Assembly (NCBI GenBank): GCA_963806865.1 | Contig: CAWDYV010000002.1 | Span: 89,194 to 153,193 of the forward strand | Length of the DNA: 64,000 nucleotides | Direction: 5' to 3' | Source: an uncultured bacterium | GTDB lineage: Bacteria; Actinomycetota; Thermoleophilia; Solirubrobacterales; 70-9 | Part shown: one piece after another, positions 38,475 to 55,952 of the stretch | How positions within the stretch are numbered: the first letter of the stretch is position 1 | Layout: each line of letters starts with the position of its first letter | Program-made: the position numbers and the translations under genes | The notes under the pieces: model-generated | Told to the model about the DNA's origin: nothing | The model's input: the letters and a program-made list of their open reading frames with translations, nothing else | Database searches by the model: none

Positions 38475-39251
38475 GGTGATTCCTCGCCGAGTTCGACCCT
38501 ATCCGGCTCAAAGCGATGGCCGCCGCGGCCGCGACGCCCAGGGACTCGACGGCGTCGGGGCGCATCGGAATGGTCCACGTTGCGTCGGTCGCGTCGATGA
38601 CCTCCTGCGGGCAGGCCGTCGCGCTCGGAGCCGAGGCAGATGGTCTCGCGCGTCCGCGTGCGGGCTCCGGAGCGCCTCCGTGGGCAACCAAGGAGACGCG
38701 AGGGCGCAGGCGTCTCCTCGAGGTCGCAGCGCGCTGATGGGCACGGTGAAGATCGCGCCCATCGAGGCGCGGACCGCCTTGGGGCCGTACGGGTCGGCGC
38801 ACTCGGGCCCCAGCGCGACCCAGGCGTCGGCGAGCGCCCCGGCGCTGCGGACGATGCTCCCCACGTTCCCGGGATCCCCGACGCCGTGGAGATACACGCA
38901 AAGCGCCCCCTCCCCAGGCAAACGTCCCACGCTAGTGCCCCTATAGGGGCACGTTGTTGGACGTTTTGCCTCGGGGAGGGGCCATATGGCGATCGCGCGG
39001 GTGCCTGAGCCCAGGGTCGAGACCGCGTCGAGGAGCTCGGCGGCGACTTCGTCGCCGCCCACGCCCTCGCCCTCGCGCGTGAGGAGTAGCGACCGGCTCG
39101 TAGCCCGGCGGAGCGACCTGCTTCCAGCAGGTCTTCGCCCTCGGTGACGAACAGGCCCTCGCGCTCGCGGTGCTTGCGCTCGGCGAGCTTTCGCACCAGC
39201 TTCAGCTTCTCGTTGTCTTTGCTTGTGATCGTCGATCGAAAGTGCGTGCAT
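38471..39251 (-). CDS. TrmH/SpoU-family RNA 2'-O-methyltransferase, frame-disrupted, carrying an in-frame palindromic insert
   Basis: [37 protein letters not shown]; [18 protein letters not shown]; [56 protein letters not shown]; LGSERDGLP...[23 protein letters not shown]. The stop overlaps the pheS ATG (ATGA). Confidence 0.75.
38912..38976. repeat. Palindromic element, copy A (CCCCTATAGGGG-core subfamily), inside the TrmH-like coding sequence
   Basis: ccccaggcaaacgtcccacgctagtgcccctataggggcacgttgttggacgttttgcctcgggg. Imperfect ~65-bp palindrome centred at 38943/38944, with arms AAACGTCC..AC / GT..GGACGTTT. Confidence 0.8.
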
Positions 39252-39264
39252 TCTCGTTATCGCC

Positions 39265-39291
39265 AACAAAAAGGGCGCCTCTGGGGCGCCC
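39265..39291 (-). terminator. Rho-independent terminator after rplT
   Basis: The minus strand reads GGGCGCC-CCAGA-GGCGCCC followed by TTTTTGTT, about 30 nt after the rplT stop and just before the TrmH-like start. Confidence 0.75.
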
Positions 39292-39322
39292 GTGGAATCC
39301 TGGTCGGCGGTCGAGGATTCGC

Positions 39323-39684
39323 TCAGGCCGCCGCGGCCTCCCGGGCTAGGTCGGTAAAACGTCGAAACGCCTCGGGGTCGCGCACGGCGAGGTCGGCGAG
39401 CATCTTGCGGTTGACCTCGACCTCGGCCAGCTTCAGGCCGTGCATCAGCTCGCGAGTAGCTCATGCCCTCCTGCCTCGCGGCGGCGTTGATGCGGACGAT
39501 CCAGAGGCGGCGGAAGTCGCGCTTGCGCCGGCGGCGGTCGCGGAACGCGTAGTTCCCCGAGCGCATGACCTGCTCGTTCGCGAAGCGGTAGCTCGAGTGC
39601 TTGCGGCCGTAGTAGCCCTTGGCCTGGTCGAGGATCTTCTTCTTGCGCTTCTTGCGAGCGACGGCGTTCGTTGCGCGAGGCCAT
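39323..39684 (-). CDS. rplT: 50S ribosomal protein L20 (frame-disrupted)
   Basis: [117 protein letters not shown]-stop. An extra G right after the ATG and one more indel near 39.45 kb break the frame. Confidence 0.9.
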
Positions 39685-39687
39685 GCG

Positions 39688-39888
39688 CTACTTCCTCTTC
39701 GCGAGCAGGCGGTTGACGCGCTCGGTATCGGCCGGAGCGACGTCGGTGGGCTTGGCCATGCGGCGCTTCCGCTTCGGCGACTTCTTCTCCAGGATGTGGC
39801 TGGAGTACGCGCGCCGGCCGCGGAGCTTGCCGCTGGCGGTCTTGCGAAAGCGCTTCTTGGCGCCCGAATGGGACTTCATCTTCGGCAT
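39688..39888 (-). CDS. rpmI: 50S ribosomal protein L35
   Basis: Intact: [62 protein letters not shown]. Three nt separate its stop from the rplT ATG. Confidence 0.9.
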
Positions 39889-39898
39889 GGCGAACGGA

Positions 39899-40701
39899 CT
39901 ATTGAAGCAGAGCCGCCGGCGCTCGTCGGCCGCCGGGCGGCCACTCCGGTGCTCGATCGAGCTCGGCTTCGGCGGGCGCCTCGGCTCGGCTCGAGGGCCT
40001 TCGGCGTCTGGGGTCGACTCCTCGCGGCTCAGGCCGGCCTCGGGCGACCTCGGCCTGCGTCCGGAGGTTCGGCCGCCTCCGGCTACGGCCTCAGCGCTCG
40101 GCTCACCGCGGGCTGCTCGCCCGTCTTGGCCTTGTCGCGCTCGCTTGAGCGCCTCCTTCGAGGGCGCGAGCAGCATGTGCATGTTGCGGCCCTCCTGGAG
40201 GGGGTTCTGCTCGATCACGCCGAGCCCGTCGAGGTCTTCGAAGAGGCGCTGCGAGGAGGTTGCGCCCTCGCTCGGGGTGCGCCTGCTCGCGGCCGCGGAA
40301 CATGATCGTGACCTTCACCTTGTCGCCCCGCTGCAGGAAGCGCTCGACGTGGCCCTTCTTGGTCGAGTAGTCGTGGTCGGCGATCTTCGGGACGCAGCTT
40401 GATCTCGCGCACGTTGATCTGCTGCTGGTGCTTGCGGGCCGCTTTGGCCTTCTGCTCCTGCTCGTACTTGTACTTCGAGTAGTCGAGGAGCCGGGCGACG
40501 GGCGGGCGCGAGTCGGGAGCGACCTCGACCAGGTCGAGATCGCGCTCCTGTGCCATCTCAAGCGCTTTCTTGGGTGTCGATGACGCCGATCTGCTTGCCG
40601 TCCTCGTCGACCAGGCGGACCTCGCGAACGCCGATGCGCTCGTTGATCCGAGTCTGGTCCCGCTCGGGCATCCGGCGGTCGAAACGTCGAGGGACCGGCA
40701 C
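39899..40701 (-). CDS. infC: Translation initiation factor IF-3 (frame-disrupted; 3' end uncertain)
   Basis: [28 protein letters not shown](A)[99 protein letters not shown]...[19 protein letters not shown]. An extra A in GAAAGCG breaks the frame near 40.56 kb. The core ends about 40.17 kb. The tail could stop near 40.09 kb or run on to 39.90 kb. Confidence 0.85.
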
Positions 40702-40786
40702 TAGATGAAGCTGTTGCGGCGCGTCAAGTCGTTAATGGCGCTGCGAGGTGTTGGGGAACTCCATCTGCGCGGAAGTATAGAGCCGT

Positions 40787-42712
40787 TCTCGAGATGTCAA
40801 GCCCGAAGCCGCTCGGCGAGCGCTTCGGCCGACATCGCGCCCAGATCGCCGTCCTCAGTGCGAGCGCACCGAGATCTCGCCCGACTCGGCCTCGCGGTCG
40901 CCCAGGATCACCATGTAGGGGAGCTTCGCGAGCTCGGCGTCGCGGATCTTCCGGCCGACCGACTCGGTGCGGTCGTCGACGCGGGCGCGGACGCCCTGAG
41001 GCGCTGAGCTCTGCGACGACCTGCGCCGCGCGCTCGTTGTGGCGGTCGGCGACGGGCAGGACGCCGACCTGCACCGGCGCGAGCCAGTCGGGGAAGCGCC
41101 CCGCGTAGTGCTCGATCAGGATCCCCGCGAAGCGCTCCATCGAGCCCAGGAGCGCACGGTGGATCATCACCGGCCGGTGCTCGGCGTTGTCCTCGCCCCA
41201 GTAGGTGAGCTCGAAGCGCTCGGGCATCTGGAAGTCGAGCTGGCAGGTGCCGAGCTGCCAGGAGCGGCCGAGCGCGTCGGTCACGTGGAAGTCGATCTTG
41301 GGCCCGTAGAAGGAGCCGTCGCCGGGGTTGAGGACGTACTCGCGGCCCTGGCCCTCGAGCGCCTCGGTGAGCGCCTTCTCGGCCGCCTCCCAGTCCTCGT
41401 CGGAGCCGATCGCCTTCTCGGGCTTGGTCGAGAGCTCGACCCGCACGTCTTCGAAGCCGAAGCGCGCGTAGAGCTCGTCGATGGACTCGCAGATCGAGTC
41501 GACCTCGGCGCGGACCTGGTCGAGCGTGCAGTAGACGTGCGCGTCGTCCTGGGTGAACGCGCGCACGCGCAGGAGGCCGTGGAGGACGCCCTCGCGCTCG
41601 TGGCGCGAGACGTGGCCGTACTCGGCGAGGCGCAGCGGCAGCTCGCGGTACGAGCGCCGCTCGGCGCCGAAGACGAGGCAGGCGCCGGGGCAGTTCATCG
41701 GCTTGAGCGCGAACTGGCGCTCGTCCACGTCCGAGAAGTACATGTTCTCGCGGTAGTTGTCGTAGTGGCCCGAGCGGTGCCAGAGCTCGACGTCCATGAT
41801 GTGCGGCGTCTTGATCTCGGCGTAGCCGCGCTTTTCGAGCTGCGCGTCCACCTCGTCCTGGATCAGGCGCAGGAGCACGGTGCCCTGGGGCAGCCAGAAC
41901 GGCATGCCCGGGCGACTCGGGGCGCAGCATGAAGAGGCCGAGCTCGCGGCCGAGGCGGCGGTGGTCGCGCTCGCGCGCCTCGTCGAGGAGGCGCTCGTGC
42001 TCTTCCAGGTCGGCCTGCTTGAAGAACGCGGTGCCGTAGATCCGGCTCAGCATGTTCGCGGCTCTCGTCGCCGCGCCAGTAGGCGCCGGCGACCGAGGTG
42101 AGCTTGAAGGCCTTGATGCGCTTGGTCGTCGGGCCGTGCGGGCCGAGGCAGAGGTCGGTGAAGGGGCCGTTGCGGTAGAGCGAGACGGTCTCGACGCCCT
42201 GGTCGCGCACCAGGTCCTCGATCAGCTCGACCTTGTAGGGCTGATCCTCGGCGGCGAAGCGCTCCATGCGCCTCGCCCGGCGTCACGTCCGTGCGCTCGA
42301 ACTCCTCGTCGGCGGCGATGTGGCGGGCCATCGCCTCCTCGATCTTCGGCAGGTCGTCGACCGACGGGCGGAAGTCGTCCGGGAACTCGAAGTCGTAGTA
42401 GAAGCCGTTCTCGATCGCCGGGCCGATCGAGACCTTCGTGCCCGGCCACAGCTCGACCACCGCGGTCGCGAGGACGTGCGCGGCGTCGTGGCGGATGAGC
42501 GCGAGCGCCTCGGGGTCGCGGTCGGTGAGGATCGCGATCTCGGCGCCGTCGGGAAGCGGCGCCGAGAGGTCGCGGAGCTCGCCGTCGACCTTGATCGCAA
42601 GCGCCGCCTTCGCGAGGCCCGGGCCGATCGCCGCAGCGGCGTCGGCGCCCGTCGCTCCGTCCGAGAGCTCGAGCGGGGTCCCGTCGGGAAGCTTTACGGT
42701 GATCGCGGCCAT
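40787..42712 (-). CDS. thrS: Threonine--tRNA ligase, frame-disrupted
   Basis: [16 protein letters not shown] (TGS); [38 protein letters not shown]; [11 protein letters not shown]; [13 protein letters not shown]; [11 protein letters not shown]...CPGACLVF...[39 protein letters not shown]; [12 protein letters not shown]...[14 protein letters not shown]; [11 protein letters not shown]; C-terminal anticodon-binding domain. Many frame changes. Confidence 0.9.
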
Positions 42713-42722
42713 GGCGCTGATG

Positions 42723-44581
42723 CTATTCGCGGCTAGTCGGCGCGGCTCGGCGCGGTCGCCGTCGGCGACGAACGGGCAGCCCGGGTCGGAGCCCGCGAGC
42801 TTGCGCGCGGTAGAGGACGTACTCGAGCCCGTCCGACTCGTGCGCGGTCGATCTCGCTCGAGCCGGCCGACGACCGGCAGCGGCTCGTCCAGCTCGCCGA
42901 TCACGACCACCGCTCCGAACGCCTTGTCCGACACCGTCTCCGGCGAGACCTCCTCCTCGGAGATGACGCACACCTCGCGCCCGCGAAGCTCCCACGTGAC
43001 CAGGTCTCGGCCGTTCTGCGACGGCGAGCTCGTCGTCGATCACGGCCAGGACCGGCTCGTCCTCGGCGAGCTGAGCCGAGAACTCGAGCAGCGCCGGCGT
43101 CCAGGTCGACGGGCCGACCGGACCGTTCACCAGGGCAAGCGCGCTCGAGCCCGCGGCGCCGACCACGAAGGCGAGCGTGAGGGCGGGCACGGCGAGCGCG
43201 CGGCCGGGGCGCTCGCGGAGCGTGTGGACGGGCGGCGTCGCCTCGAGGCAGCCGCGCACCGCGATCAGCATCGCGACCGGCGCGACGATCGCGAGCGCCT
43301 TCGCCTCCTGGTAGGGCGTGCCGCCGACGAGCGCGTAGACGTAGAGGAGCGCCGCCGGCCGCGACCGCCGACGACGAGCGCCGTCTCGCCCGCCCGAAGC
43401 GCGCGCACCAGCCCGAGCCCGAGCGCGAGCGCGCCGATCAGCGCCGCCGAGGTAGAAGGCGAACGCCGGCGCGAAGCCGGCGCCCGGGATCGAGCCGGAA
43501 GTCGCCGGACGGCCAGATGCCGAGCGCCTCGATCGGCGAGATCGGGTTGAAGAGGTTGCCGAGGCCCGCGCCGCTCGGGTCGAAGGTCTCGAAGCTCGCG
43601 AAGTCGATCATGCGCGGGATCTCGGGCGCGGCCGCGACGAGCGACGGCCGCGACGGCGATCGAGCGCCGGGACCAGCGCGTCGCGGATCGGCGTAGAGCC
43701 GCCGGGCGCGAACGATCTCGGCGACCGCGAAGACCCCGAGCGTGCCGACGAGCCACGTCAGGCCCGGGAAAGCTGTAGGCGTAGAGCGAGCCGATCGGCG
43801 AGCAGCCGCGAGCGGGACGGCCTTGAGGCGGCCCCAGCGCTTGAGGCGCGGTGCCTCGGGCGCGCCGTTCGCCTGCGCCAGCTCGGCGAGCCCGATCGCG
43901 AACGCCAGCACGAACAGCGCCTGCATCGTCTCCTTGAAGGCGCCCTGGATGAAGTACGACGCCGCCAGGTAGGCCACGCCGACGAGGAGCGCCGCGCCGA
44001 TTCGCCGCGGCGTCTCGAGGCCACTCGAGCAGCGCCGAGCGGCGCGAGCGTTGCGGCGACGACGGTCGCCAGCGTGAGCCCGCCGAACGCCGTGGACGAG
44101 TGACGGCCCCAGCTTCGCGACCGAGGCAACGAGAGCGTGCGGGCCGAGCGGATACCCCTCGGCGATCAGCCGCTCCTCTCCGCCGCTCGACGAGGCGGTC
44201 CGTCGCGAAGAGGTGCTGCGACATGTCGGGGTTGAGCGAGGTGCCGAGGATCCCGAACCGCATCTCGACCACGAACGGCAGCGACCCGAGGACGACCGCG
44301 CCGACCAGCGGCGGGCACGCGCCCTCGAGTCTCCCCGGTCGGCGGGCTCGAAGCGAAGCGCCGTCGCGCCGACGAGCGTCAGCACGGCGACGGCGCCCAG
44401 GCCCGGCCCAGGCCGAGCCGGCGAGGTCGGTCGCGAGCCAGGCGACGGCGCAGAGCAGGCCGAGGCCGACGGCCGGGGCGAGGGGCGAGCGCTCGCGGTG
44501 GCCGCACAGGCAGAAGATCGCCTGCCCGACGACGAACGAGGCCCCCAGGATGAGCGCCAGCGAGACGTAGGTGCCGAGCAT
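42723..44581 (-). CDS. Large polytopic membrane protein with C-terminal extracytoplasmic domain (family not recognised), frame-disrupted
   Basis: MLGTYVSLALILGASFVVGQAIFCLC...; LGSLPFVVEMRFGILGTSLNPDMSQHLF; AEGYPLGPHALVASVAKL; LLVGVAYLAASYFIQGAFKETMQALFVLAFAIGLAEL; FPGLTWLVGTLGVFAVAEI; FNPISPIEALGIWPSGDFRL; tail ...VISEEEVSPETVSDKAFGAVVVIGELDEPLPVVGRLE. Many frame changes. Confidence 0.45.
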
Positions 44582-44641
44582 CGGGCGGCGAGCCTAAAGC
44601 CGACGCGCCAGGCCCGGCGCCGGGGGCGACGCGCCTCCGGG

Positions 44642-44701
44642 TCACGTGACGAGAATGATGATGATGATGATCAGGAGCAGGGTGCCGAGTCCGATGTACA
44701 T
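44642..44701 (-). CDS. 19-codon hydrophobic mini-ORF, copy 1 (downstream copy): MYIGLGTLLLIIIIIILVT
   Basis: ATG 44701-44699 is preceded by aacacAGGAGatcgc (SD, 5-nt spacer). The stop is TGA at 44644-44642. Six consecutive Ile codons (ATC x5, ATT). Confidence 0.55.
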   Translation of the reverse strand: MYIGLGTLLLIIIIIILVT

Positions 44702-44716
44702 GCGATCTCCTGTGTT

Positions 44717-44776
44717 CTAGGTGACGAGAATGATGATGATGATGATCAGGAGCAGGGCTCCGAGTCCGATGTACAT
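44717..44776 (-). CDS. 19-codon hydrophobic mini-ORF, copy 2 (upstream copy): MYIGLGALLLIIIIIILVT
   Basis: ATG 44776-44774 is preceded by aaGGAAGGAGagcac. The stop is TAG at 44719-44717. It differs from copy 1 by one conservative replacement (Thr/Ala), two synonymous changes and the stop codon. Confidence 0.55.
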   Translation of the reverse strand: MYIGLGALLLIIIIIILVT

Positions 44777-44871
44777 GTGCTCTCCTTCCTTGGACTGAGC
44801 GGGATGCGCTCATCCTTACCCCTTCGGCGGACGCTCAAGCGCATCCGATTGGCAGCCGCGCCTCGAAGCGT

Positions 44872-45331
44872 CTAGAGCTCGCGCTCGTAGAAGAGCATCA
44901 GCGGGCCCGAGCCGCGGCCCTCGTGGTTCGTGAAGCCCTCGCTCTCGTAAAGCGCGACGCGCCGCCTCGTCGTCCTCGCTCGTGCCGAGCTCCATATGCG
45001 TGCGCACCCTCGGCGCGCGCAACGTCCATCGCCTCGCGCAGGAGCTTGCGGCCGATCCCCTGCCCACGCAGGTCCGGGACCACGTAGAGCTCCTCGAGAT
45101 AGGCAGTCGAGCTTCGCCGTCCAGACGGACTTGCGAAAGCGAAGCTCGGCGAGGCCGTCCGGCCCGTCGCCGGCGAGGAGCACGACCATGTCGCCCGCGT
45201 CGAGCATCTCGCGCGCGTTCCGGTCAGCACCTCGACGCCGGGCGTGAAGTCGTCGTACTCGGTGTTGAAGTCGTGAAGCAGCCGCGCCACGTCGGGCGCG
45301 TCGTCGGGGTGGCGCGTCGAACGCGGCTCAC
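44872..45331 (-). CDS. GNAT family N-acetyltransferase, frame-disrupted
   Basis: RRATPDDAPDVARLLHDFNTEYDDFTPGVEVL; MLDAGDMVVLLAGDGPDGLAELRFRKSVWT; YLEELYVVPDLRGQGIGRKLLREAMDVARAEGA; ALYESEGFTNHEGRGSGPLMLFYEREL-stop. Pieces lie in 3 frames. Confidence 0.65.
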
Positions 45332-45335
45332 GAGA

Positions 45336-45408
45336 TGGGCACTACTGGGCTCGAACCAGTGACCTCCGCCTTGTCGAGGCGGCGCTCTCCCAACTGAGCT
45401 AAGCGCCC
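45336..45408 (-). tRNA. tRNA-Val (anticodon GAC)
   Basis: Minus strand: GGGCGCT-TA-GCTC-AGTTGGGA-GAGC-G-CCGCC-TCGACAA-GGCGG-AGGTC-ACTGG-TTCGAGC-CCAGT-AGTGCCC-A. Full cloverleaf of 73 nt with no encoded CCA. The anticodon loop has C instead of the usual U at position 33. Confidence 0.85.
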
Positions 45409-45454
45409 GAGCGTCGGAATTTACCAGCGGCGCGTTCGGCTAGCTTCCGCGCGC

Positions 45455-46241
45455 GTGATCGCACTCGTGACAGGCGCTTCCAGCGGTATCGGCGAAGCGA
45501 CCGCCAAGCGGATCGCCCGCGAGCCGGGCGCGAAGCTCATCCTGGTCGCGCGCCGCCAGGACCGCCTCGATGCCCTGGCCGCCGAGATCGGCGGCGCGAC
45601 GGTGATCGCGGTCGACCTCACCGACGACGACGCGCCGGCGAAGGTCGCCGAGCGGGTCGAGGCCGAGCACGGGCGGCTCGACCTCCTGGTGAACAACGCG
45701 GGCGCGGCGTGGCGCGGGCAGGTTCGGCGAGACGGGCTGGGAGAACCTCGAGCGCCACATGAAGCTCAACTTCGACTCGGTCGCACGCCTGACCGAGGCC
45801 CTCCTCCCCATCCTCCGGCGCTCGGCGCCGAGCTCGATCGTGAACGTCGCCTCGACCGCCGGCCGGGTCTCGCGCGCGCAACTCCGGCGCCTACTCGGCG
45901 TCGAAGTTCGCTCTCGCCGGCTGGACGGACGCGCTCCATCTCGAGGAGCGCGAGCACGGCGTGCACGTCGGCATGGTCCTTCCCGGCTTCGTCACCACCG
46001 AGGGCTTTCCGCAGAAGGAGCTCGTCGACAAGCCGCACACGCGCTGGATCGTCTCGACGCCCGACAAGGTCGCCGAGGCGATCATGGACGCCGGCCCCGG
46101 CGGCAAGGCCGAGCGCTACGTGCCGCGCGCCGTACGCGCTGGCGGCTGCGTCGCGAGTCGTGATGCCGTCGCGTCGTCCGCCGCGCCCTCTCGGGCGGCA
46201 GCAAGGCGATCACGCCCGCCACGGGCTCAGACGAACGCTAA
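45455..46241 (+). CDS. Short-chain dehydrogenase/reductase (SDR), frame-disrupted
   Basis: IALVTGASSGIGEATAKRIA (TGxxxGxG); LDLLVNNAGAA; MKLNFDSVARLTEALLPILRRSAPSSIVNVASTAG; YSASKFALAGWTDALHLEE...GVHVGMVLPGFVTTEGF (YxxxK). The stop TAA is at 46239-46241 in a further frame. Confidence 0.8.
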
Positions 46242-46243
46242 AG

Positions 46244-46303
46244 GGGCGAAACGTCCCAATTGGCCTCGTATAGAGGGTCGCGTGGGACGTTGGTGCCTGG
46301 GGC
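46244..46303. repeat. Palindromic element, copy B (CTCTATA-core subfamily), between convergent SDR and phosphoesterase genes
   Basis: ggggcgaaacgtcccaattggcctcgtatagagggtcgcgtgggacgttggtgcctgggg. Arms AACGTCCCA / TGGGACGTT. Starts 2 nt after the SDR stop. Confidence 0.8.
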
Positions 46304-46304
46304 C

Positions 46305-47877
46305 TCAGCGGCCGAGGGCGGCGGCCTTGCGGTTGCCCTCTTCGAGCGCCTTCTTCACCTTGTCCGGGTAGCGGAAGATCTGGTCGAGCGTCGCGTCCGG
46401 CACCTCGTAGCCGAGCGAGTCCAGGTAGCCCGAGCGTCTCGAGCGCCGACCATGTCGTGCGGCTTCGGGCGCTCCGCGCCCTGCGCCGAGCACGCGGCAC
46501 GTCTGCGCCTCGAGGAACTCGTACATCGGCAGCTCCGGGCGGCTCGATGTCGGTCTTCTTGAAGTTGAAGCTGCGCCCGATGTTCGACGCGAAGCGATGG
46601 CGCATGTTCAGGTGGCCGAAGCCGAACTTGTAGGAGATGAGCTTCAGGATCGACTCGTGGGTCACGGGCATGTGGCTGACCCCGCCGCCGCGGGTGAACG
46701 GGCGAGATCGCGACGCCCGGGATGCGGAAGCCGGTGAAGCCCCAGTCGTTGAACGAGGTCCGCGCGGTTCTCGCGGTCGTCGGGCACGAACGGCGGCGTC
46801 ACGTGGTCGAAGAAGCCGCCCCACTCGTCGTAGTTGATGAACATCGCCCCGCGCTCGTAGTGCGGCGACTCGATGAAGGCGTTGCGCGACGTCCGACATG
46901 AACGCCTGGCCGAGGCGGATGTCGCCGTGCGGGTGCTCGTCGGCCGACAGGCCGTCGCCGCCGCCGCCGTTCTTGAACGGCGGGTCGACGAAGCGATTTG
47001 CGGCAGGGTGCCGGCGAGCCGCGTCGGCGTAGAACTGCTCGATCGGGCGTGTCCATCGCGACGCCGCGCTGGCCGTAGAGCGCCGAGAACGGCAGGTCCG
47101 AGTTGTAGTAGCCGAACGAGACCCCGTTCGCCTCGGCGCGGTCGACGATCGTCTCCCAGGTAAAGCCCGTCTCCTGCCCCGGGACCTCGAACGGGAAGAG
47201 GTTCGACTTCTGGCCGCCGTTCTGAGCGCCCCACTGGTAGTGGCGGTTCGGATAGGTCGAGGCCATGATCGAGCAGAACCAGCGGTCATAGAGCGTGTAG
47301 CTCGTCCGCCGCGTGCGGGATGAACGGCACGTCCTCCTTCGAGGTAGTAGCCGATCGCGAACTCGTCGCTGACGATGCCAGGTCCTCGTTGCCGGTGACG
47401 AAGCGGTCGTTCTTGCCGCCGTTCCACTGCCAGCGCCCGCCGGTCCAGCCGTGGTCGGGATCGGGATGCTCGCAGCCCTGGAAGTCCGGGCGTGAGGCGG
47501 TAGGTCTCGATCTGGTTGCCCTCGGCGTCGGGATACGTGAGGCCCTCGGCCTTCGCGTCGGCATCCGGGTGCCAGCCGAAGTAGTGGTCGAACGAGCGGT
47601 TCTCCATCATCAGGACGACGAAGGTGTCGATCGGCAGTTCTGCGGGCTCGGCAGCTTGCGCTGGGCGGTGCGGCGCGCCGCCTCGGCGATCAGCTCGTCC
47701 GCAGGCAGGTAGCTCGCGAGCGCCAGCGCCGCCGGCCGCGGCAGCGGTCTTGGCGAGGAAGTCCCGGCGCCGAAGCGTGCCCTCCGGGTCTCGCGCCATC
47801 TCGCGCTCGAGAGTCTCGGGGTCGGAGAGCTCGCCCCGCTCGAAGAAGTCCGAATGGTCCGCCGGTCGTCGCATCAT
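46305..47877 (-). CDS. Tat-exported phosphoesterase-family protein (phospholipase C / acid phosphatase AcpA-like), frame-disrupted
   Basis: Tat-like RRRDFLAKTAAAAGGAGA; IDTFVVLMMENRSFDHYFGW; GNQIETYRL; FINYDEWGGFFDHVTPP; C-terminus LDSLGYEVPDATLDQIFRYPDKVKKALEEGNRKAAALGR-stop (ORF 46305..46526). Several frame changes. Confidence 0.75.
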
Positions 47878-48273
47878 CTGGTCCAGCACCTCCACGTTCT
47901 CGCAGTCGAAGACGCCGTCCTCGATCTGGTCGGCGAGCACCGTGTCCTCGCCGCGGCCCGCAGTCGATCTGGTCCGGCGTTGCCATCGCGGGCGTGGATC
48001 TCGTCGTCGCCCTTGCCGGCGCGGATCTCGTCGAACGCCTGTGCCGCTCTTGATGAAGTCGTCGCCCGCGCCGCCGATCGACGAGGTCACCGCCCTCGCC
48101 CGAGCGCAGGATGTCGTCGCCGCCCTTGCCGATCAGCTTGTCGCCGTTCTTCGAGCCGATCAGCTTGTCGTCGCCGCTGCGTGCCCTTGAGGACCTTGGC
48201 GAGCGCGGGAGCGGCGAGAACGAGCGCGCAGACGCACAGGAGCCCAACACCCCGCTCTGAGATCCGTCTTCAT
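47874..48273 (-). CDS. Secreted calcium-binding-repeat (GGxGxD-type) protein, frame-disrupted
   Basis: MKTDLRAG-VLGLLCVCALVLAAPALA (signal, after a frame shift); GDDKLIGSKNGDKLIGKGGDDILRSGEGGD; GGAGDDFIKSGTG; GRGEDTVLADQIEDGVFDCENVEV (typical C-terminus). As assembled, no stop precedes the phosphoesterase start in the same frame. Confidence 0.5.
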
Positions 48274-48335
48274 CACCACAGCTTGTACACCCTTGCGGCG
48301 GCCGCGATGTGGCAATTCGGTCAACGCTGCTCACG

Positions 48336-48680
48336 TCACGACCCTGACCGGTCGAGGCCCTCAACGTCGACCGAGACGACCGTGGCTCGCTCGCCCTCGG
48401 CGAGCGGCTCCGCGCCGTCGGCCGTCGCCTTCCACACCTCGCCGCGGACCCGCACGAGGCCGTCCGGGTCGCACGCCTCGATCACGGTCGCTCGCTCGCC
48501 GATCATCCCCTCGGCACCGCCGCGCACGCGGTAGCGCTCGAGGAAGCGGATCCACAGGAAGATCTCGCCGATCTCGAAGAACACGGCGAGGCCGAACAGG
48601 ATCACGTTCCAGGGGCTCGGCAGGATGAAGAGGCCGACGATCGAGGCCGTGAGGACCATGCGCGCCGAGTCTAGGCGCAC
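48336..48680 (-). CDS. NfeD-family membrane protein
   Basis: Intact 114-aa ORF. Two TM helices (IVGLFILPSPWNVILFGLAVFFEIGEIFLW) followed by an OB-fold tail GERATVIEACDPDGLVRVRGEVWKA...GERATVVSVDGL. Confidence 0.65.
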   Translation of the reverse strand: MRLDSARMVLTASIVGLFILPSPWNVILFGLAVFFEIGEIFLWIRFLERYRVRGGAEGMIGERATVIEACDPDGLVRVRGEVWKATADGAEPLAEGERATVVSVDVEGLDRSGS

Positions 48681-48706
48681 GCAGCGGGCGCTCTAGCCTC
48701 GGCGCG

Positions 48707-49595
48707 ATGCGGATCGCGCTCGCGACCTGCTCGGTCATGCCGGACCAGTTCACCGACGACCAGCTGGTCGATCGACGAGCTCCGCGCCCTGGGCGCCGAG
48801 GTCACCTACGAGCCGTGGGACACCGAGCATCGACTGGGCCGGCTTCGACGCCGTCGGCGTCCGCTCGCCGTGGGACTACAGCTACCGCCGCGACGAGTTC
48901 GTCGCCTGGGCCGAGGCGGCGGGCCCGAACCTCCACAACTCGGCGACACTCCTGCGCTGGAACTCCGACAAGTCCTACATGGGCGACCTCGAAGCGGCGG
49001 GCCTGCCGGTCGTCGAGACGACGTTTGTCGCCCCGGGCGAGGAATGGCAAGGCGACGAGCGCGAGGTGTCGTCAAGCCCTCGGTCTCGGCCGGGGCTCGC
49101 GACACGGGGCGCTTCACGCCGGCCGTTCACGACGAGGCGCGCGCGCTCGATCGAGACGATTCACGACAGCGGCCGGACCGCGATGGTCCAGCCCTTTCAG
49201 CCGTCGGTCGACGAGCATGGGCGAGACCGCGCTCGTCTTCATCGACGGCGAGTTCAGCCACTCGCTGCGCAAGCGCGCGGTGCTTCAGCCCGACGAGGTC
49301 GCGCCCGTCGCGCGACGACCGACCTGATGGTCGCCGAGGCGATGTACGACCCCGAGCTGGTCCTCGCAGGCACCTACGAGCCGGACGAGCTGCGAGCTCG
49401 CCGAGCGGATCGTCTCGCCACGTCACCGAGCGCTTCGGCTACCTGCCGCTCTACGCGCGGGTCGACATGCTGCGCGACGCCGATGGCGCGCCGGTCCTGC
49501 TCGAGCTCGAAGCGGTCGAGCCCAACCTCTACTTCGACCAGTTCCCGGACGGCGCGGGCCGGCTCGCGCGCGCGATCGCCGCCCGCGCGGGCTGA
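48707..49595 (+). CDS. ATP-grasp domain protein (RimK/glutathione-synthase-like), frame-disrupted
   Basis: MRIALATCSVMPDQFTDDQL; WAGFDAVGVRSPWDYSYRRDEFVAWAE; LLRWNSDKSYMGDLEAAGLPVVET; VVKPSVSAGARDTGRF; TAMVQPFQPSVDEHGETALVFIDGEFSH; FGYLPLYARVDMLRDADGAPVLLELEAVEPNLYF. Pieces lie in 3 frames. Confidence 0.6.
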
Positions 49596-50075
49596 TGGAG
49601 CTGCGCACATACACCGATGCCGGACGCGTCGTTCACCGAGCGGCTCGAGACGGATCCGATCGTCATGGCCGAGCTTGGCGGGGCGGTCACGCCCGACGCC
49701 ATCCCGGAGATCCACGCCCGGCGCCTTCGCACCGTCGAGGGCGGCGACTGGTGGTTCGTGATCGAGTCAGCGGGCGAGCCGGTCGGCGTAATCGGGGTCT
49801 GGCCGCACGAGATCGACGACCGCGCAGAGCACGAGGTCGGATGGATGGTCGTTCCCGAGCGCCAGGGCGAAGGAATCGCGACGGAGGCGCTGGCAACGAT
49901 GCTCAACCGCGCCCGGGCAGACGCGCGCTTCCCCGTGATCCACGCTTATCCCGGCGCTTCGAACAGCCGCGTCGAACGCGCTTTGCGCCCGGGCCGGGTT
50001 CGAGCTGCAAGGCTCTGAGGAGGTCACCTACAAGAACGAGCCGTTCCTCTGCAACCACTGGACGCTCAGGCTCTG
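49595..50075 (+). CDS. GNAT family N-acetyltransferase, frame-disrupted
   Basis: MELRTYTD..ASFTERLETDPIVMAELGG; WWFVIESAGEPVGVIGVWPHEIDDRAEHEVGWMVVPERQGEGIATEALATMLNRA; NALCARAGFELQGSEEVTYKNEPFLCNHWTLRL-stop. The start overlaps the upstream stop (TGATG). Confidence 0.65.
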
Positions 50076-50136
50076 ACGAGGTCAAACGTCCGACGTGGCC
50101 CTCTATGCGAGGCCAATTGGGACGTTTGCATCGCCG
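50076..50136. repeat. Palindromic element, copy C (same subfamily as B, opposite orientation), between convergent GNAT and ABC ATPase genes
   Basis: gacgaggtcaaacgtccgacgtggccctctatgcgaggccaattgggacgtttgcatcgcc. The stretch CCCTCTAT(G/A)CGAGGCCAATTGGGACGTTT is nearly identical to the reverse complement of copy B. Confidence 0.8.
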
Positions 50137-50137
50137 G

Positions 50138-51214
50138 TTAGCGCAGGACGATCGAGTTCTCCGGGTGCCAGCCCACCCGGATCGTCATCCCCGGCTCCCA
50201 GCGGTCGTCGGCCGAGGCGCGGTAGGTCGCCTGCTCGAGCGCGACGAGCCGAGCGCCGTTGCCGAGGCCGACGGTGATCTGCGTCGAGACGCCGAGGTAG
50301 ACGCGGCCCTCGATCGTCCCCTCGACGCTCACCATGCCGTCCTCGACCTCATCGTCGATCGCGATCTTCTCGGGCCGGACCGAGATCTGCACCGTGTCGC
50401 CCGGCGCCGCAATCCGGCGGGAACCGGCGCCGCGAACGCTCTGCCCGGTTGCGATCTTGACCGCGCCGTCGCCCGTCGACCCGCCCTCGATCAGGTTCGA
50501 GATGCCGATGAAGCCCGCGACGAACTCTCCGGTGGGGTGCTCGTAGATGTCCTCCGGCGGGCCGCACTGGGCGATCCGCCCGCCCGACATGACCGCGATC
50601 CGGTCGGACATCGAAAGCGCCTCCTCCTGGTCGTGGGTCACGTAGACGAACGTGATCCCGACCTCGCGCTGGATCTGCTTCAGCTCGACCTGCATCTGGC
50701 GGCGGAGCTTCAGGTCGAGCGCGCCGAGCGGCTCGTCCAGGAGCAAGCACCGCCGGGCGGTTGACGAGCGCGCGCGCGAGGGCAACGCGCTGGCGCTGGC
50801 CGCCCGAGAGCTTGTTCGGCCGGTCGTGCGCCCGGTCGGCCAGGCCCGACCAGCTCGAGCGCGTCGGCGACGCGCTGCGTCGATCTCGTCCTTCGGGCGC
50901 TTCTTTCGCTTGAGGCCGAAGGCGACGTTGCCGGCGACGTCGAGGTGGCCGAAGAGCGCGTAGCTCTGGAAGACCATGTTCACGTTTCGCTCGTACGGCG
51001 GCACGTCCTCGACCGGCTCGCCCTCGAGCAGGATGCGGCCCTCGGTCGGGCACCTCGAAGCCGGCGAGCATCCGCAGCGTCGTCGTCTTGCCGCAGCCCG
51101 AGGGCCCGAGCAGGCTGAAGAACTCGCCCTTCGGGATCGAGAGGTCGATGTTGTCGACGGCGGTGAAGTCGCCGAAGCGCTTCGAGACCCCTCGATCGTG
51201 ATCGCGTCGACCAC
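50138..51214 (-). CDS. ABC transporter ATP-binding protein (PotA-like, polyamine/opine type), frame-disrupted at the N-terminus
   Basis: [22 protein letters not shown] (Walker A, other frame); [15 protein letters not shown]; [15 protein letters not shown] (other frame); [11 protein letters not shown]; [20 protein letters not shown]; C-terminal TOBE-like domain. Confidence 0.85.
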
Positions 51215-51215
51215 T

Positions 51216-52039
51216 CTATCCTCCCTCCTGTCCGGTCAGCACCTTGAGGCCGCTCTCCTTGCGCCCGAAGAACCGCGGGATCAGGACCGCGGCGATGACG
51301 GCCGTGATCGAGACGACCATCATCAGCGTCCCGATCGCGTTGATCGTCGGCGAGACGCCGAAGCGGATCGCCGACCAGATGCGCACGGGCAGCGGCTGGA
51401 CGTCCTCGCCCGTGGTGAAGAACGAGATCACGAAGTCGTCGAACGAGAGCGCGAAGACGAGGAGGCCCGGCCGCGACGACGGCCGGCCACAGCTCGGGCA
51501 ACGAGCACCAGGCGGACGGCGCCGAAGCGGGTCGCGCCCAGGTCCATCGCTGCCTGCTCGACCTCGTCGCCCATCGAGGCAAGGCGCCCGCGCACCACGA
51601 TCGTCACGTAGGAGATCGAGAACGTGATGTGCGCGATCACGATCGTCCAGAACGAGAGCTGGATGCCCAGCTGGCTGAAGATGATGAGCGCCGAGATGCC
51701 CGCGACGATCTCGGGCGTGACGAGCGGGATCAGCATCAGGACGTTCGCCGCCGGGCTCCAGCGCGTGCGGGCGCGAACGAGGCCGATCGCGAGCGCCGTG
51801 CCCAGGAGCGTCGCGACGATCATCGTGATCAGCGCGATCTCGAGCGAGACGAAGAGCGACTCGCGAAGCGGTCGAGTCGTTCAAGAACTCCTCGTACCAC
51901 TGGAGCGAGAAGCCCTGGAACGACTGGAGCGACTTGACCGAGTTGAACGAGAAGAGGACGACGACCGCGATCGGCAGGAAGAGGAACGCGTAGACGAAGA
52001 ACGAGTAGACGCGCAGGAACCGGGGCGGTCGAAGGCCAT
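51216..52039 (-). CDS. ABC transporter permease (PotC-like), frame-disrupted
   Basis: FLRVYSFFVYAFLFLPIAVVVLFSFNS; TLLGTALAIGLVRARTRWSPAANVLMLIPLVTPEIVAGISALIIFSQLG; EQAAMDLGA (EAA loop); FVISFFTTGEDVQPLPVRIWSAIRFGVSPTINAIGTLMMVVS. Confidence 0.8.
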
Positions 52040-52044
52040 CGGCC

Positions 52045-52910
52045 TCAGGCGCCCACCGGGTCGCGGGCCTCGCGGGCGGCCGAGCGCAGGTAGCCCACCA
52101 TCCAGAACGACGAGGAAGATCATCATCACCACGGTCAGCGCCGAGCCGAACGGCCAGTTGTTCGCGGTGAAGAACTGGTCCTGGATCAGGTTGCCGACCA
52201 TGTAGGTGTCGGGCCCGCCCAGGAGCTGGGCCGAGACGAAGTCGCCGACCGCGGGCAGGAAGACCAGGACGCAGCCGGCCAGGATCCCCTGCTTCGTCTG
52301 CGGCAGGGTGACGTGGATGAAGGTCTGGAACGGCCGGCCGAAGAGGTCCTTGCCCGCCTCGATCAGCGACGGGTCCATGCGCTCGAGCGAGGCGTAGATC
52401 GGCAGGATCATGAAGACGAGGTAGCCGTAGACGAGGCCGCCGATCACCGCGTAGGGCGTGTTGATGAGCTGGAGGCCCGTCTCCGAGATGCTGAGCGAGC
52501 CGAGCGCCGAGTTGACGAGTCCCTCGTCGGCGAGGAGCGCCACCCACGCGTAGGTGCGGACGAGGTAGTTGACGAAGAACGGGATCACCAGAAGCGCGAT
52601 CAGGATGTGCTTCTTCGAGCCTCCGTAGCGGGCGATGTAGTAGGCGATCGGATAGCCCAGGAGCGAGGCAGAGCGCGACGGTCGCGAGCGCGAAGCCGAC
52701 CGAGCGCAGGAGCACCGGGATGTAGAGCGGGTCGAAGGCGTCCGCGTAGTTGTCGAGCTCGAACGCGTACACGGCGCGGCCGAGGTCGTCGGTGAAGCCG
52801 AACGAGAGCGCCAGGACGAGCGTGAGCGGGATCGCGAAGAGGAGGAGGAGCCAGAGGCCGCCGGGCAGCGAGGAAGCGCGACCAGAAACCCGCGCGTCGC
52901 GCGCGGTCAC
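52045..52910 (-). CDS. ABC transporter permease (PotB-like), frame-disrupted
   Basis: LPGGLWLLLLFAIPLTLVLALSFG; IPFFVNYLVRTYAWVALLADEGLVN; ILPIYASLERMDPSLIEAGKDLFG (EAA loop); LAGCVLVFLPAVGDFVSAQLLGGPDTYMVGNLI. The GTG start overlaps the upstream stop (GTGA). Confidence 0.8.
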
Positions 52911-54036
52911 GTCGCCTTCACCTCGGTCCAGATCTGGCTCCAGAGCGCGCGGTCGTCGGCATCGTCCAGCCGGTACTCGAGGCCGCTGTCGCCGAGCTGA
53001 TTCAGGTCGACGTCGATCGACGGCTCCTCCTTGACGAGCTCGGCGAACGCCTCGCGCGCCGCCCTCGTGCGGCTGGGGATAGCCGTTCCACATGCACGTT
53101 CTGCGCAGCGTTCTCCGGCTCGAGGATCCAGTCGATGAAGAGCATCGCCGTGCCCGGGCTCCGCGCACGTGACGGGGATGCACATCAGGTCGGTGCCGAC
53201 CGGGACACCCTCCTCGCAGGTCTCGTAGCTGAAGACCTCGGGGTTGTCCACCTGGTTTCTGACGTTCACGATGTCGCCGTTCCACGCCTGGTGGATCGCC
53301 GCGGTGCCGTTCACCAGGTTCTGCGTCGAGTTGGTCGAGATGCCCGCGCGCGAACTCCTTTTGCTCCAGCAGCGTCTCCTTCGAGATCTCGAGCTCGTTC
53401 GGGTCGGCCGTGTTGAGGTCCCAGCCGTTGATCAGGTTCGCCTCGCCGATCGCCTCCTGGTAGTCGTCGAGGATGAACATGCGCCCCTCGCCGTCGGGGT
53501 TCGTGAGGTCGTTCCACGAGCCGGTCATGCCCGAGACCTCGTCGTCGCGCCAGCAGATGCCGGTCGTGTAGTACGCGTAGGGCACCGAGAACTCGGAGTT
53601 CGGGTCCCACCAGCCCGAGTCGTAGAACGGACGAGATGCCGTCGGCGTTCTTGAGATCGGAGCGGTCGAAGTGCGCGAGGAGGCCCTCCGCGTTCAGGCG
53701 GTACGCGTACTCGGGCGTCGGCCAGATCATGTCGTACTGGCCGCCCGCCCGGAGCTTGGTGACCATCGCCTCGAGGTTGTCGAAGTTCACCTCGTTGACC
53801 TCGACGCCGTACTCCTCCGCGAAGCCCTTCTTGAGCTCGGGGTCCATGTACTGCGCCCAGTTGTAGATCAGGAGGTCGCCGTCCACCTCGGGCTTGACCG
53901 AGACGCCGCCCTCGGGCGTGTCGAGCTCGACGCGAGACCGTGCAGCCCGAGAGGCCGTAGGCGCCGAGCGCGCCGACCGCTGCCGCCCGCAGCGCCTGCC
54001 GCCGGGTGAATGGTGCGCCGAGATCGATGATGGTCA
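52907..54036 (-). CDS. Extracellular solute-binding lipoprotein (PotD/PotF-like), frame-disrupted
   Basis: Tat/lipobox-like FTRRQALRAAAVGALGAYGLSGC; DLLIYNWAQYMDPELKKGFAEEYGVEVNEVNFDNLEAMVTKLRAGGQYDMIWPTPEYAYRLNAEGLL; PYAYYTTGICWRDD; ILDDYQEAIGEANLINGWD; ...LWSQIWTEVKAT-stop. Confidence 0.75.
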
Positions 54037-54083
54037 CTCGGCGATTCACGCTACTCCGACGCCCTCTGAGCCCGCAATTGAGC

Positions 54084-54705
54084 GTCACGCCAAGGCCTCC
54101 GGCTTGACTCCCGAGAGCGGCGCGAGCGTGCCGGGCGACGAGCGACCGCGGCGCCGCCTCGACGTCCATCGCCGGGTCGGCGACCATCGCGCGGATGCCC
54201 GCGCCGTCGAGCAGCGCCATCGCGACGTCGGCGATCTCCTCGGCGTCGCCGCTCAGCGTGAACTCGCCGCTCTCGACGCCGGCGCGGATCATCGCCGCGA
54301 GCCACCTGCGGTAGCGCTCATAGAGCGCGGCCGCGACCGCGCCGCAGGCCCGGCTCGCGCACGGCGCGGAGCCAGAGCTCGACCCACAGGACCCACTCGC
54401 GCTCGGACTCGCCGGGGAACGGCAGGCACTCGCGGATCGCGAGGCCGAAGGTCTCGGTCGCCGACGCCGGGCCGCGAGTCGGACTCGTCGCCGAAGCGGT
54501 CGTCGCCCGCGCGCTCGAACGAGTGGACGAGCGCCTGCTCGAGGAGCTCTTCGCGGGTCGAGAAGTAGTGGTGGACGAGGCCGCTCGACGCCCGGGCTCG
54601 CGTCGCGACGCGCGCGATCCGGACCTCGTCGATCCCCTCCTCGGCGATGATCTCGCAGGCTGCGTCGAGGATCCGGTCGGCGGTTTCTGTGGCCACGGCG
54701 GACAC
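54084..54705 (-). CDS. TetR/AcrR-family transcriptional regulator, frame-disrupted; 3' end uncertain
   Basis: ADRILDAACEIIAEEGIDEVRIARVATRARASSGLVHHYFSTREELLEQALVHSF (HTH). Later blocks LAIRECLPFPGESEREWVLWVELWLRAVREPGLR and AMIRAGVESGEFTLSGDAEEIADVAMALLDGAGI lie in other frames. Confidence 0.7.
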
Positions 54706-54714
54706 GCTCTCACC

Positions 54715-55919
54715 TCAGCTCGCGCTCGAAGCGCCTCCATGTAGCGCTCGGCAACCATCGCGTCGAAGGCGTGGACGTCGCCCTCGTCGGCCGAGTAGCG
54801 CCCGGCGACGTAGCCGCGCGCCCGAACGCCCTTCTGCGTCAGCTCGCAGACGCGCCAGTCCTCGCGGTTCACCTGGTCCCAGAAGTCGATCGCGTCGGAG
54901 GGGTCGAAGCCGTCGACCTCGATCGTCTCGGGCTCGAAGTACCACTCGCAGATCACGTCGGTGCGGTCGACCGCGCGCGGCCACAGGGTGTGGAGCATCA
55001 CGTAGTCGGGGTGGAGCGAGATGAGCGCGTTCGGGAAAGAGCGCGAAGTAGTAGACGGACGCGTGCTCGGCCGGGTCGAGCCCGGTGATCGGCGGGCGCT
55101 GCGCGTGGCCGTTCCGGCCCATCGTCTCGGCGCCCTCGTTCAGCGCCATCGAGCCGCCGCACCAGGCGCCCGGCCCGGACTGCGAGTTGCCGCTCCGGTA
55201 GTCGGAGAGCGCGTTCAGCTCCGGGTGGACGCCGGGGCAGTGGAGGCACTCGTTGTAGTTCTCGGCGATCGCCTTCCAGTTCGCCTCGACCTCGTACGTC
55301 GCGCGAGCCGGCGCGCCGCAGGTCCGAGAGCCGCCAGCCGGCGAGGCGCGTCGCCGAGGTCGCCGACGTGCTCGACCGGGATCGGGCGCCTCGCCGCTCA
55401 GATCGCCGAAGAGGAGGCCCGAGACGACGGCGCTTCTGACCTCGATCAGGCCAAAGCACGAGCGGTCGAAGTCCTCGACCGCGTCCATGTGCGGCGCGGC
55501 GGCGAGGCTGCCGTCGAGCCCGTACGACCAGGCGTGGTACGGGCACTGGATGCGGCGGCGGACCTGGCCCTCGGCCTCCTCGACCAGGCGCGAGCCGCGG
55601 TGGCGGCAGGTGTTGAGGAAGACGCGCGGCGACGCCGTCCTCGCCGGCGAGCGCGAAGACGCTGGTCTCGCCGATCTCGCGCATCAGGTAGCGCCCGGCT
55701 CGGCGACCAGCGGAGGCGTGGCCCAGGCAGACCCAGCCGCCGTAGAGATGCTCCGATCTCCCAGGCGAGGACGGCGGGATCGCAGAACGCGGCGGGCGGG
55801 AGCATCGTCGCCCGCGCGACGGGCTTCAGCGTCAGCGCGACCTCGCGCGGATCAAGCGGCAGCGGGCCGTCAGGACGAAACGTCCGACACCCCCTATAGG
55901 GGTGCTGGACGTTGGCCAC
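54715..55919 (-). CDS. Rieske [2Fe-2S] aromatic-ring-hydroxylating-type oxygenase alpha subunit (GbcA/Stc2-like), frame-disrupted
   Basis: LPPAAFCDPAVLAWE; Rieske motif NTCRHRGSRL...CPYHAWSYGLDG; catalytic domain NWKAIAENYNECLHCPGVHPEL...; ALISLHPDYVMLHTLWP...WDQVNREDWRVCE. Both ends are uncertain. Element D covers the first 15 codons if ATG 55919 is used. Confidence 0.8.
55874..55917. repeat. Palindromic element, copy D (CCCCTATAGGGG-core subfamily), in the Rieske / acyl-CoA dehydrogenase divergent region
   Basis: gacgaaacgtccgacaccccctataggggtgctggacgttggcc. Arms AACGTCCGAC / GCTGGACGTT around CACCCCCTATAGGGGTG. Confidence 0.8.
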
Positions 55920-55924
55920 GGTGG

Positions 55925-55944
55925 TGTTGATCTTGTAGTCAATT
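55925..55944. promoter_or_regulatory. Putative operator, site 1: GTTGATCTTGTAGTCAATTG
   Basis: AT-rich 20-mer in the divergent Rieske / ACAD intergenic region. It matches 18 of 20 positions of the site at 60702..60721. Confidence 0.5.
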
Positions 55945-55952
55945 GCGCAATC

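Follow-up and report, generated by a model that had tools for sequence, protein, structure and literature searches.

A dispersed palindrome family of Solirubrobacterales and the predicted AbiEi-like/Vsr-like nuclease gene that it brackets

Four imperfect palindromes, here called A to D, lie in a 64,000-nt window (C2:89194-153193) of G000, the genome under study (2.37 Mb, 69% GC, four contigs). Our analysis shows that they belong to a lineage-specific repeat family, found in soil actinobacteria (Solirubrobacterales), whose copies are gained and lost at specific sites. The family is very probably associated with a gene for an AbiEi-like/Vsr-like nuclease, and this association is supported by the architecture of the gene and its flanking palindromes, by arm variants common to the copies of one genome, by co-occurrence across genomes and by the predicted fold of the protein. 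On balance, we favor the reading that the four elements are solo copies of a dispersed palindrome that would be the cognate repeat of the bracketed protein.

An earlier note on the window had located the four elements, and all are present where it placed them. The pattern AACGTCC-N20..50-GGACGTT has exactly four matches in the window, against 0.01 expected from shuffles, and a covariance model built from 82 palindrome copies recovers the same four, with nothing further below E = 0.005. Each is an imperfect palindrome with AACGTCC and GGACGTT arms and a center at or near CTATAG. Copy A (38917..38969; 35 bits, E = 1e-9 with the covariance model) has the core palindrome AAACGTCC...CCCCTATAGGGG...GGACGTTT, is located in the linker of a gene for a TrmH/SpoU-like methyltransferase on the minus strand, and is nested in a longer, 79-nt palindrome (38905-38983, CCCCTCCCC...GGGGAGGGG) with a computed RNA fold of -57.9 kcal/mol (z = -7.6). 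Copy B (46246..46295; 41 bits) occupies the 63-nt intergenic gap between the stop of a plus-strand SDR gene (TAA, 46239-46241; Pfam adh_short) and a convergent minus-strand stop (TCA, 46305-46307), and its two halves are unlike (CAATTGG versus CGCGTGG). Copy C (50081..50130; 41 bits) lies 10 nt downstream of the stop (50138-50140) of a minus-strand potA-like ABC ATPase gene (50138..51214; Pfam TOBE_2 and ABC_tran). Copy D (55875..55917; 30 bits) is shortened, with 35 rather than 42 nt between arm ends. As the note had also claimed, A and D have the core CCCCTATAGGGG in common; C and the reverse complement of B are nearly identical over 30 nt and have CCCTCTAT(A/G)CGAGGCCAATTGGGACGTTT in common; and B and C both follow CGC-TAA stops, in the same orientation relative to the upstream gene. 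A is indeed intragenic, and is kept in frame in intact orthologues of the TrmH-like gene. The assignment of D to a promoter region held in part: D adjoins a conserved AT-rich promoter/operator region, but it overlaps the 5′ end of a leftward open reading frame (ORF; 55446..55919). With four copies in 17 kb, against a genome average of about one per 74 kb, the four elements form a local cluster.

The note had proposed a dispersed repeat family rather than four local operators, and a genome-wide pattern search bears this out. The exact arm pattern occurs 26 times in G000; one 77-nt match has no center and looks like chance, leaving 25 copies, and nhmmer raises the total to approximately 32 sites. 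Sixteen of the 25 exact copies measure 42 nt between arm ends, and the G000 consensus is cAAACGTCC-N28-GGACGTTTg. Overall, the element measures 44-52 bp, with outer arms (C)GAACGTCC / GGACGTTC(G), AAACGTCC in G000, a fixed span and a conserved CTATAG center. The exact AAACGTCC form is present in 9 of 40 relatives, and reversed-pattern controls gave zero matches everywhere. By the covariance model, the family is found in 18 of the 19 genomes of the genus, with none in the single-contig genome G008, and in 19 of 121 sampled genomes of the order, representing 11 of 47 genera. Copies resemble others of the same genome: when 77 copies from eight genomes were compared by inner sequence, 43 had their nearest neighbor within their own genome, whereas 9.5 were expected and 2000 shuffles never gave more than 22, and orthologous A and B copies carry cores or arms typical of their own genome.

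Comparison of orthologous sites in relatives, proposed in the earlier note as a check, revealed that all four window sites vary, being filled in some genomes and empty in others. Site A is filled in at least nine genomes (G000, G018, G003, G014, G017, G002 and G006, with a degenerate copy in G010 and two tandem copies in G016) and empty in four (G011, G007, G013 and G008), and its element is read in frame in the intact TrmH-like ORFs of G003, G014, G005, G010 and G006. Site B is filled in five genomes (G000, G016, G010, G005 and G012) and empty in G018, in which the stops of the two convergent genes overlap in a CTAG. Sites C and D are filled in G000 alone, among 14 genomes compared and 9 genomes aligned, respectively, which indicates activity of the family after the divergence of G000 from relatives whose flanking DNA is 82-88% identical. 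No target-site duplication was recognizable between filled and empty sites A, B, C and D, the flanks of which have diverged. Two of the sites show further changes. At site C (window 50018-50140), G018 and G017 have approximately 740 bp between the potA-like gene and its left neighbor that are missing in G000, so that copy C, at the junction, marks a deletion or rearrangement point. At site D (window 55875-55919), the leftward gene of relatives has an ATG just left of the position of copy D. This ATG is gone in G000, and a GTG at 55917-55919, just beyond copy D, opens a frame through the whole palindrome into the gene (ORF 55446..55919); insertion of copy D may have given the leftward gene a new 15-residue N-terminus.

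Across 82 aligned copies, base pairing with compensatory changes extends over the outer 12-14 bp (covariation score of 0.30, compared with 0.15 in shuffles and approximately 0.1 for slid partners), while the inner seven pairs are approximately 55% paired and the center and span are conserved. Symmetric covariation alone gives the same signal for a hairpin and for a symmetric protein site. Outer pairing combined with a fixed span and center would suit a dimeric, symmetric protein that contacts two distal half-sites and a central site no less well than it suits a hairpin under selection. It is nonetheless conceivable, although we consider it unlikely, that the copies are host regulatory hairpins (terminators without a U-tract or 3′-end mRNA stabilizers) or the operators of a regulon, that the bracketed gene described below merely uses copies as operator or terminator, and that its protein has no part in the dispersed copies. 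All four window copies fold into stable hairpins by RNA folding; B and C lie a few nt past stops, in gaps where two genes converge; G000 has at least seven solo copies flanked on both sides by convergent coding sequence; copies persist in genomes that lack the gene; and AbiEi-type autorepressors bind inverted repeats (PMC7319586). Other observations fit this explanation poorly. None of the window copies has a T-tract, their tails having 2-4 T at most, and a terminator scan of 38000-56500 flagged six terminator-like sites, none of which is a palindrome copy, although the copies could possibly terminate transcription without a U-tract. The inner stem is weakly paired while span and center are fixed, and A is embedded in coding sequence, D lies at a gene's 5′ end and one G000 copy separates divergent genes. 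Nor does the explanation offer a mechanism for insertion at new sites. An Rfam scan of the window returned one tRNA only, and Rfam has no family for the palindrome. Gene contexts across G000 are approximate, since gene finding based on third-position GC (GC3) and codon usage covered 42-80% of each contig, depending on the method, and reading frames are broken; sites A-D were judged from better-assembled relatives.

Two copies of the palindrome bracket a gene for a protein of approximately 295 aa, with its start codon inside the 5′ copy and its stop overlapped by the 3′ copy. G000 has two such units, one with a single copy on either side (C3:172290-173229) and one with two copies on either side (C3:806266-807366), and the flanking elements lie approximately 860 bp apart around the gene in both and in a unit of G006. 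In G006 the gene is intact and encodes 301 aa with a Pfam DUF559 match (E = 5e-5) and a weak match to MTES_1575. The right arm of the 5′ copy holds the ATG or GTG (as in ATG-TTG-GAC-GTT), the arm sequence ATG-nGG-GAC-GTT being read as M-x-D-V, and many C-termini end in PNVPE, which is encoded by the left arm of the 3′ copy (CCGAACGTCCCGGAG). Every locus of the close subfamily of this gene that we inspected in the genus is bracketed alike, often by variant arms such as GAACGTCC, GAACGTCA, GAACGTCGCTCG and CGTCGTTTT. In a wider survey, a scan of genome contigs yielded 80 loci labeled as Solirubrobacterales, Thermoleophilia or less precisely assigned metagenome-assembled genomes. By nhmmer, 56 of 79 loci have a copy over the start and 55 of 80 have one at the stop; the covariance model raises both counts to approximately 70, the matches listed being close to the gene ends, and some of the remaining loci (L052 and L098) show variant arms by eye. 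Some bracket copies are tandem pairs with a periodicity of approximately 60 nt. The gene family as a whole is large: a threshold of E <= 1e-5 yields at least 1359 relatives, annotated, among other names, as 'DUF559', 'very-short-patch-repair endonuclease' or 'predicted transcriptional regulator of viral defense system'. Many of these relatives lie on contigs of 1-2.5 kb.

Gene and palindromes come and go as a unit. At the junction between an FAD-oxidase gene and a DUF445 gene, the whole unit, both palindromes included, is present in G006, G016, G000, G012, G010 and G001. This raises the possibility that only the bracketed gene unit is mobile and that solo copies are scars of recombination between bracket copies, comparable to solo long terminal repeats (LTRs). 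Since bracket copies are repeated in direct as well as inverted orientation, a deletion between the two would leave behind a single hybrid copy, and the unlike halves of copy B are what such an event might produce; 'DUF559 domain-containing protein' is, moreover, enriched among predicted inversion targets (PMC9881135). We nevertheless regard the scar explanation as quite improbable. G000 has approximately 26 solo copies versus two gene units, C and D are unique to G000 and relatives have no gene unit at those sites, the approximately 50-bp in-frame insert in the TrmH-like gene would require earlier disruption by a 1-kb unit, and tandem pairs, which have a periodicity of approximately 60-72 nt, are unlike the product of a single deletion. 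In a separate observation, the gene unit of G004 (L018, G004:C1:860146-864036, bases ~1400-1500) lies directly downstream of the 3′ end of a tRNA gene, a classic integration spot of mobile elements.

Within a locus, 5′ and 3′ arms match each other, and variant arms extend beyond the locus to solo copies in the same genome. The G002 variant, CGTCGTT..AACGACG, is present in seven copies, at both gene flanks, at site A and in four solo elements, and a search of other genomes returned only chance matches without the center. Similarly, in G089 the variant AGTCCA..TGGAC is found at both gene flanks and in four solo copies, with none in four control genomes. Co-occurrence was assessed in the 121 sampled genomes of the order, all but G000 at least 90% complete, using covariance-model matches at E <= 1e-6. 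Gene and repeat occurred together in 10 genomes, the gene alone in one (G089), the repeat alone in 9 and neither in 101; the single gene-only case arises because the model misses the G089 arm variant. All sampled genomes with at least 43 repeat matches carry the gene, the top counts per genome being read as at least 49. Gene and repeat are found together in 6 genera of 4 families, the other sampled genomes of two of these genera lacking both, and within the genus the single-contig G008 has neither. The host-hairpin explanation leaves both of these patterns unaccounted for, namely the arm variants common to bracket and solo copies of a genome and the link of high copy number to the gene.

An AlphaFold2 model of the protein from 65 sequences (pLDDT 93) was compared with the PDB using Foldseek: the N-terminal ~200 aa match AbiEi (6y8q, E = 1e-6), in agreement with a Pfam AbiEi_4 match on relatives of the protein, and the C-terminal ~100 aa match the catalytic domain of I-Bth0305I (3r3p, E = 4e-4, TM 0.77, 26% identity) and also Vsr (1vsr) and NGO0050 (3hrl). 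Residues E227, D229, E240, D242 and H247 are invariant in the 65 sequences, so that the model shows a Vsr-like nuclease fold with conserved acidic and histidine residues. A sequence search against solved structures gave a weak DUF559 match only (3hrl), and an NCBIfam search nothing useful. The protein is predicted, from its model, to combine an AbiEi-like winged helix-turn-helix (wHTH) DNA-binding module with a Vsr/EDxHD-type (DUF559) nuclease domain. Both folds have precedents: I-Bth0305I is a multidomain homodimer with an approximately 60-bp footprint on a pseudopalindromic site (PMC3239194), and AbiEi is a repressor of its own operon that binds inverted repeats (PMC7319586). Judging from the predicted fold and from the bracket architecture, we think the protein probably recognizes the palindrome.

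A working scheme can be drawn up on this basis. A symmetric dimer of the protein would sit on the palindrome, its wHTH domains contacting the outer arms and its nuclease domains placed over the center, and at the 5′ copy the protein would repress its own gene. Copies might be nicked or cut and then repaired from other copies, which would keep the family alike within a genome, and cutting and repair might occasionally seed new copies. Such nuclease-driven homogenization and spread is a tentative proposal, to which we give somewhat less than even credence.

Several points weigh against the favored reading. Binding and cleavage are inferred from fold and architecture; autoregulation, the way in which copies spread and a possible use of the copies by the host as RNA hairpins are likewise inferred. 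Both G000 gene copies contain stop codons, in an error-prone assembly. Intact targets on both sides of a nuclease gene are unlike what a classical homing endonuclease leaves, and no clear pattern emerged when protein residues were examined for changes that follow the arm variants. At the FAD-oxidase/DUF445 junction of G003, G005, G009 and G011, the convergent genes abut with no palindrome between them; since no solo palindrome is present at the junction without the unit, insertion of the unit there needed no pre-existing copy. The co-occurrence counts include related genomes, which are not independent observations, and the close subfamily was delimited at a gap in a bimodal distribution of profile scores (at least 281 bits, with the rest at or below 206) by a threshold set after the gap was seen. 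Finally, copies are found where the gene is not: three repeat-only genomes have 11-20 matches (G097, G135 and G137) and the others 1-4, and in the genus G003, G005, G014, G015 and G009, most of them incomplete, have copies without the gene. Copies therefore persist in its absence.

The assembly itself calls for caution in reading details. G000 is 57% complete, reading frames are broken throughout the window, and its long ORFs match Pfam domains in part only, with L20 fused to SpoU, adh_short matched over 2-93 of 195 and Phosphoesterase over 1-26 of 356. Examples of broken-frame stretches with partial Pfam matches are 38471-39566, 45455-46273, 46210-48090 and 50138-51214. Insertion and deletion errors of long-read assembly, rather than real pseudogenes, are the most likely cause, and given the partial domains and the low completeness, single-base details may be assembly errors, especially in runs of C or G.

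A RAYT/IS200-like transposase had been suggested in the earlier note as a possible partner, and classical REP/REPIN elements mobilized by RAYT, a Y1 HUH transposase, are an obvious comparison for short imperfect palindromes that lie mostly outside genes and sometimes in pairs. G000 has a gene for a Y1_Tnp protein (50 bits, above the Pfam cut-off), and the arm letters CGTC recall CGTC-tagged REPs (PMC3733652). This suggestion did not hold up. The only Y1_Tnp gene of G000 (C3:204972-205304) has no copy of the palindrome beside it (best covariance-model match E = 0.11) and is flanked instead by a different hairpin repeat, GGGGTCAGACCCC, while it is the nuclease gene that the palindrome brackets. 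The 82-copy alignment shows a symmetric element in which CGTC forms part of the paired arm, with neither a GTAG nor a CGTC tag left unpaired. Its stem and span also far exceed those of the CGTC families, which have stems of 8-9 bp and loops of 4-5 nt (PMC3733652). We consider mobilization by RAYT very improbable. The GGGGTCAGACCCC repeat has approximately 25 copies in G000, often paired and none in the window; the Y1 gene (region G000 C3:204800-205451) has a single copy to one side and two inverted copies to the other, and gene and repeat look like an ordinary REP/RAYT-type pair. In G017, G010 and G009, the positions that correspond to window copies C and D hold copies of GGGGTCAGACCCC (site D: G017 and G010). 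CRISPR-like, integron attC-like and dif-like sites were considered and rejected: copies are neither identical nor regularly spaced, no integrase context was seen, and the size is unlike that of dif.

Distant relatives of the bracketed gene show a comparable arrangement. G000 has paralogues of the AbiEi-like/DUF559 gene with 27-33% identity at C3:588973-589958, C3:450865-451900 and C2:579404-579607. Each is flanked by its own, different repeats of approximately 47 nt, and for two of these repeat types a small number of solo copies lie at other places in G000 (e.g., C2:473548, C3:642117, C2:463323 and C3:69422). We speculate, without strong conviction, that palindromes and gene together make up self-propagating DNA of a new class, in which a dimeric dsDNA nuclease recognizes the long palindrome and, by cutting followed by repair templated on other copies, homogenizes, multiplies and relocates solo copies and its own gene. 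Such a system would be REP/RAYT-like but of independent origin, with an unrelated enzyme and a dsDNA mechanism, and would be widespread in Actinomycetota, each paralogue having its own palindrome.

REP-like repeats are widespread among bacteria. GTAG-type REP/REPIN elements are the only REP-like families with a known partner enzyme, RAYT, and none is known for CGTC-REPs (PMC3733652). The palindrome and the nuclease gene would be a second, unrelated pairing of repeat and enzyme, for which the Y1 gene and its hairpin repeat provide a contrast in the same genome. If the nuclease recognizes the palindrome, this would assign a function to the very large 'DUF559 / endonuclease domain-containing' family of Actinomycetota. 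It would also explain assembly breaks and predicted inversions around DUF559 genes, account for short in-frame insertions in housekeeping genes, and provide natural nucleases with specificities of approximately 50 bp that differ between paralogues. For annotation, the copies should not be labeled terminators or operators by default.

We found no description in the literature of a unit composed of this palindrome and an AbiEi-like/Vsr-like gene; the one related item in print was the table entry on DUF559 proteins among inversion targets (PMC9881135). Parallels with known systems are partial. Bacterial miniature inverted-repeat transposable elements (MITEs), such as the Correia elements of Neisseria, are likewise short and non-coding, have inverted ends and differ in presence between orthologous sites. 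In contrast to MITEs, the whole element described here is one palindrome rather than two inverted ends around a core, and it does not appear to be an internal-deletion derivative of a transposase-encoding insertion sequence (IS), no IS-type parent having been seen. CGTC-tagged REPs and Rickettsia palindromic elements (RPE) are also palindromes without a RAYT, and some of their copies are in frame in genes, as A is (PMC3733652). CGTC-REPs have been reported in five phyla, Actinobacteria not among them, and no enzyme specific to them was identified (Di Nocera et al. 2013, PMC3733652); their tag is unpaired at one end, whereas here CGTC lies in a paired arm of an element with approximately 21 bp per side.

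Regarding the protein, I-Bth0305I, the prototype of EDxHD homing endonucleases, resembles it in its C-terminal fold, and the approximately 60-bp pseudopalindromic sequence that I-Bth0305I covers is comparable with a 44-52-bp palindrome (PMC3239194). That enzyme is encoded in a phage group I intron, the insertion of which interrupts the target (PMC3239194), whereas the gene described here is free-standing and chromosomal, lies between two intact copies and encodes an AbiEi-like binding module. AbiEi antitoxins of type IV AbiE systems have the same fold as the N-terminal ~200 residues, and they bind inverted repeats over their own promoter, as we propose for the 5′ copy (PMC7319586, PMC3985639). 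Unlike in AbiE systems, no AbiEii (DUF1814) nucleotidyltransferase gene comes next, the 3′ palindrome and a convergent neighbor following directly; the protein has a C-terminal nuclease domain; and the repeat that resembles its binding site is dispersed genome-wide.

The closest analogy is with the REP/REPIN-RAYT 'REPtrons' of Proteobacteria, which also comprise dispersed short imperfect palindromes, mostly extragenic and sometimes paired (PMC2817692, PMC3116915, PMC8266576). In both cases a low-copy enzyme gene is flanked by its own repeat, lineage-specific variants follow the gene, inheritance is mostly vertical and distribution is patchy. The predicted AbiEi-like wHTH and Vsr/PD-(D/E)XK-type nuclease is unrelated to a Y1 HUH single-strand transposase, and the 44-52-bp element, which is fully symmetric, has a fixed span and a conserved center and lacks an unpaired GTAG tag, differs from a REP. 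Here, moreover, the start codon of the gene is inside the repeat, and there are approximately 30 copies rather than hundreds.

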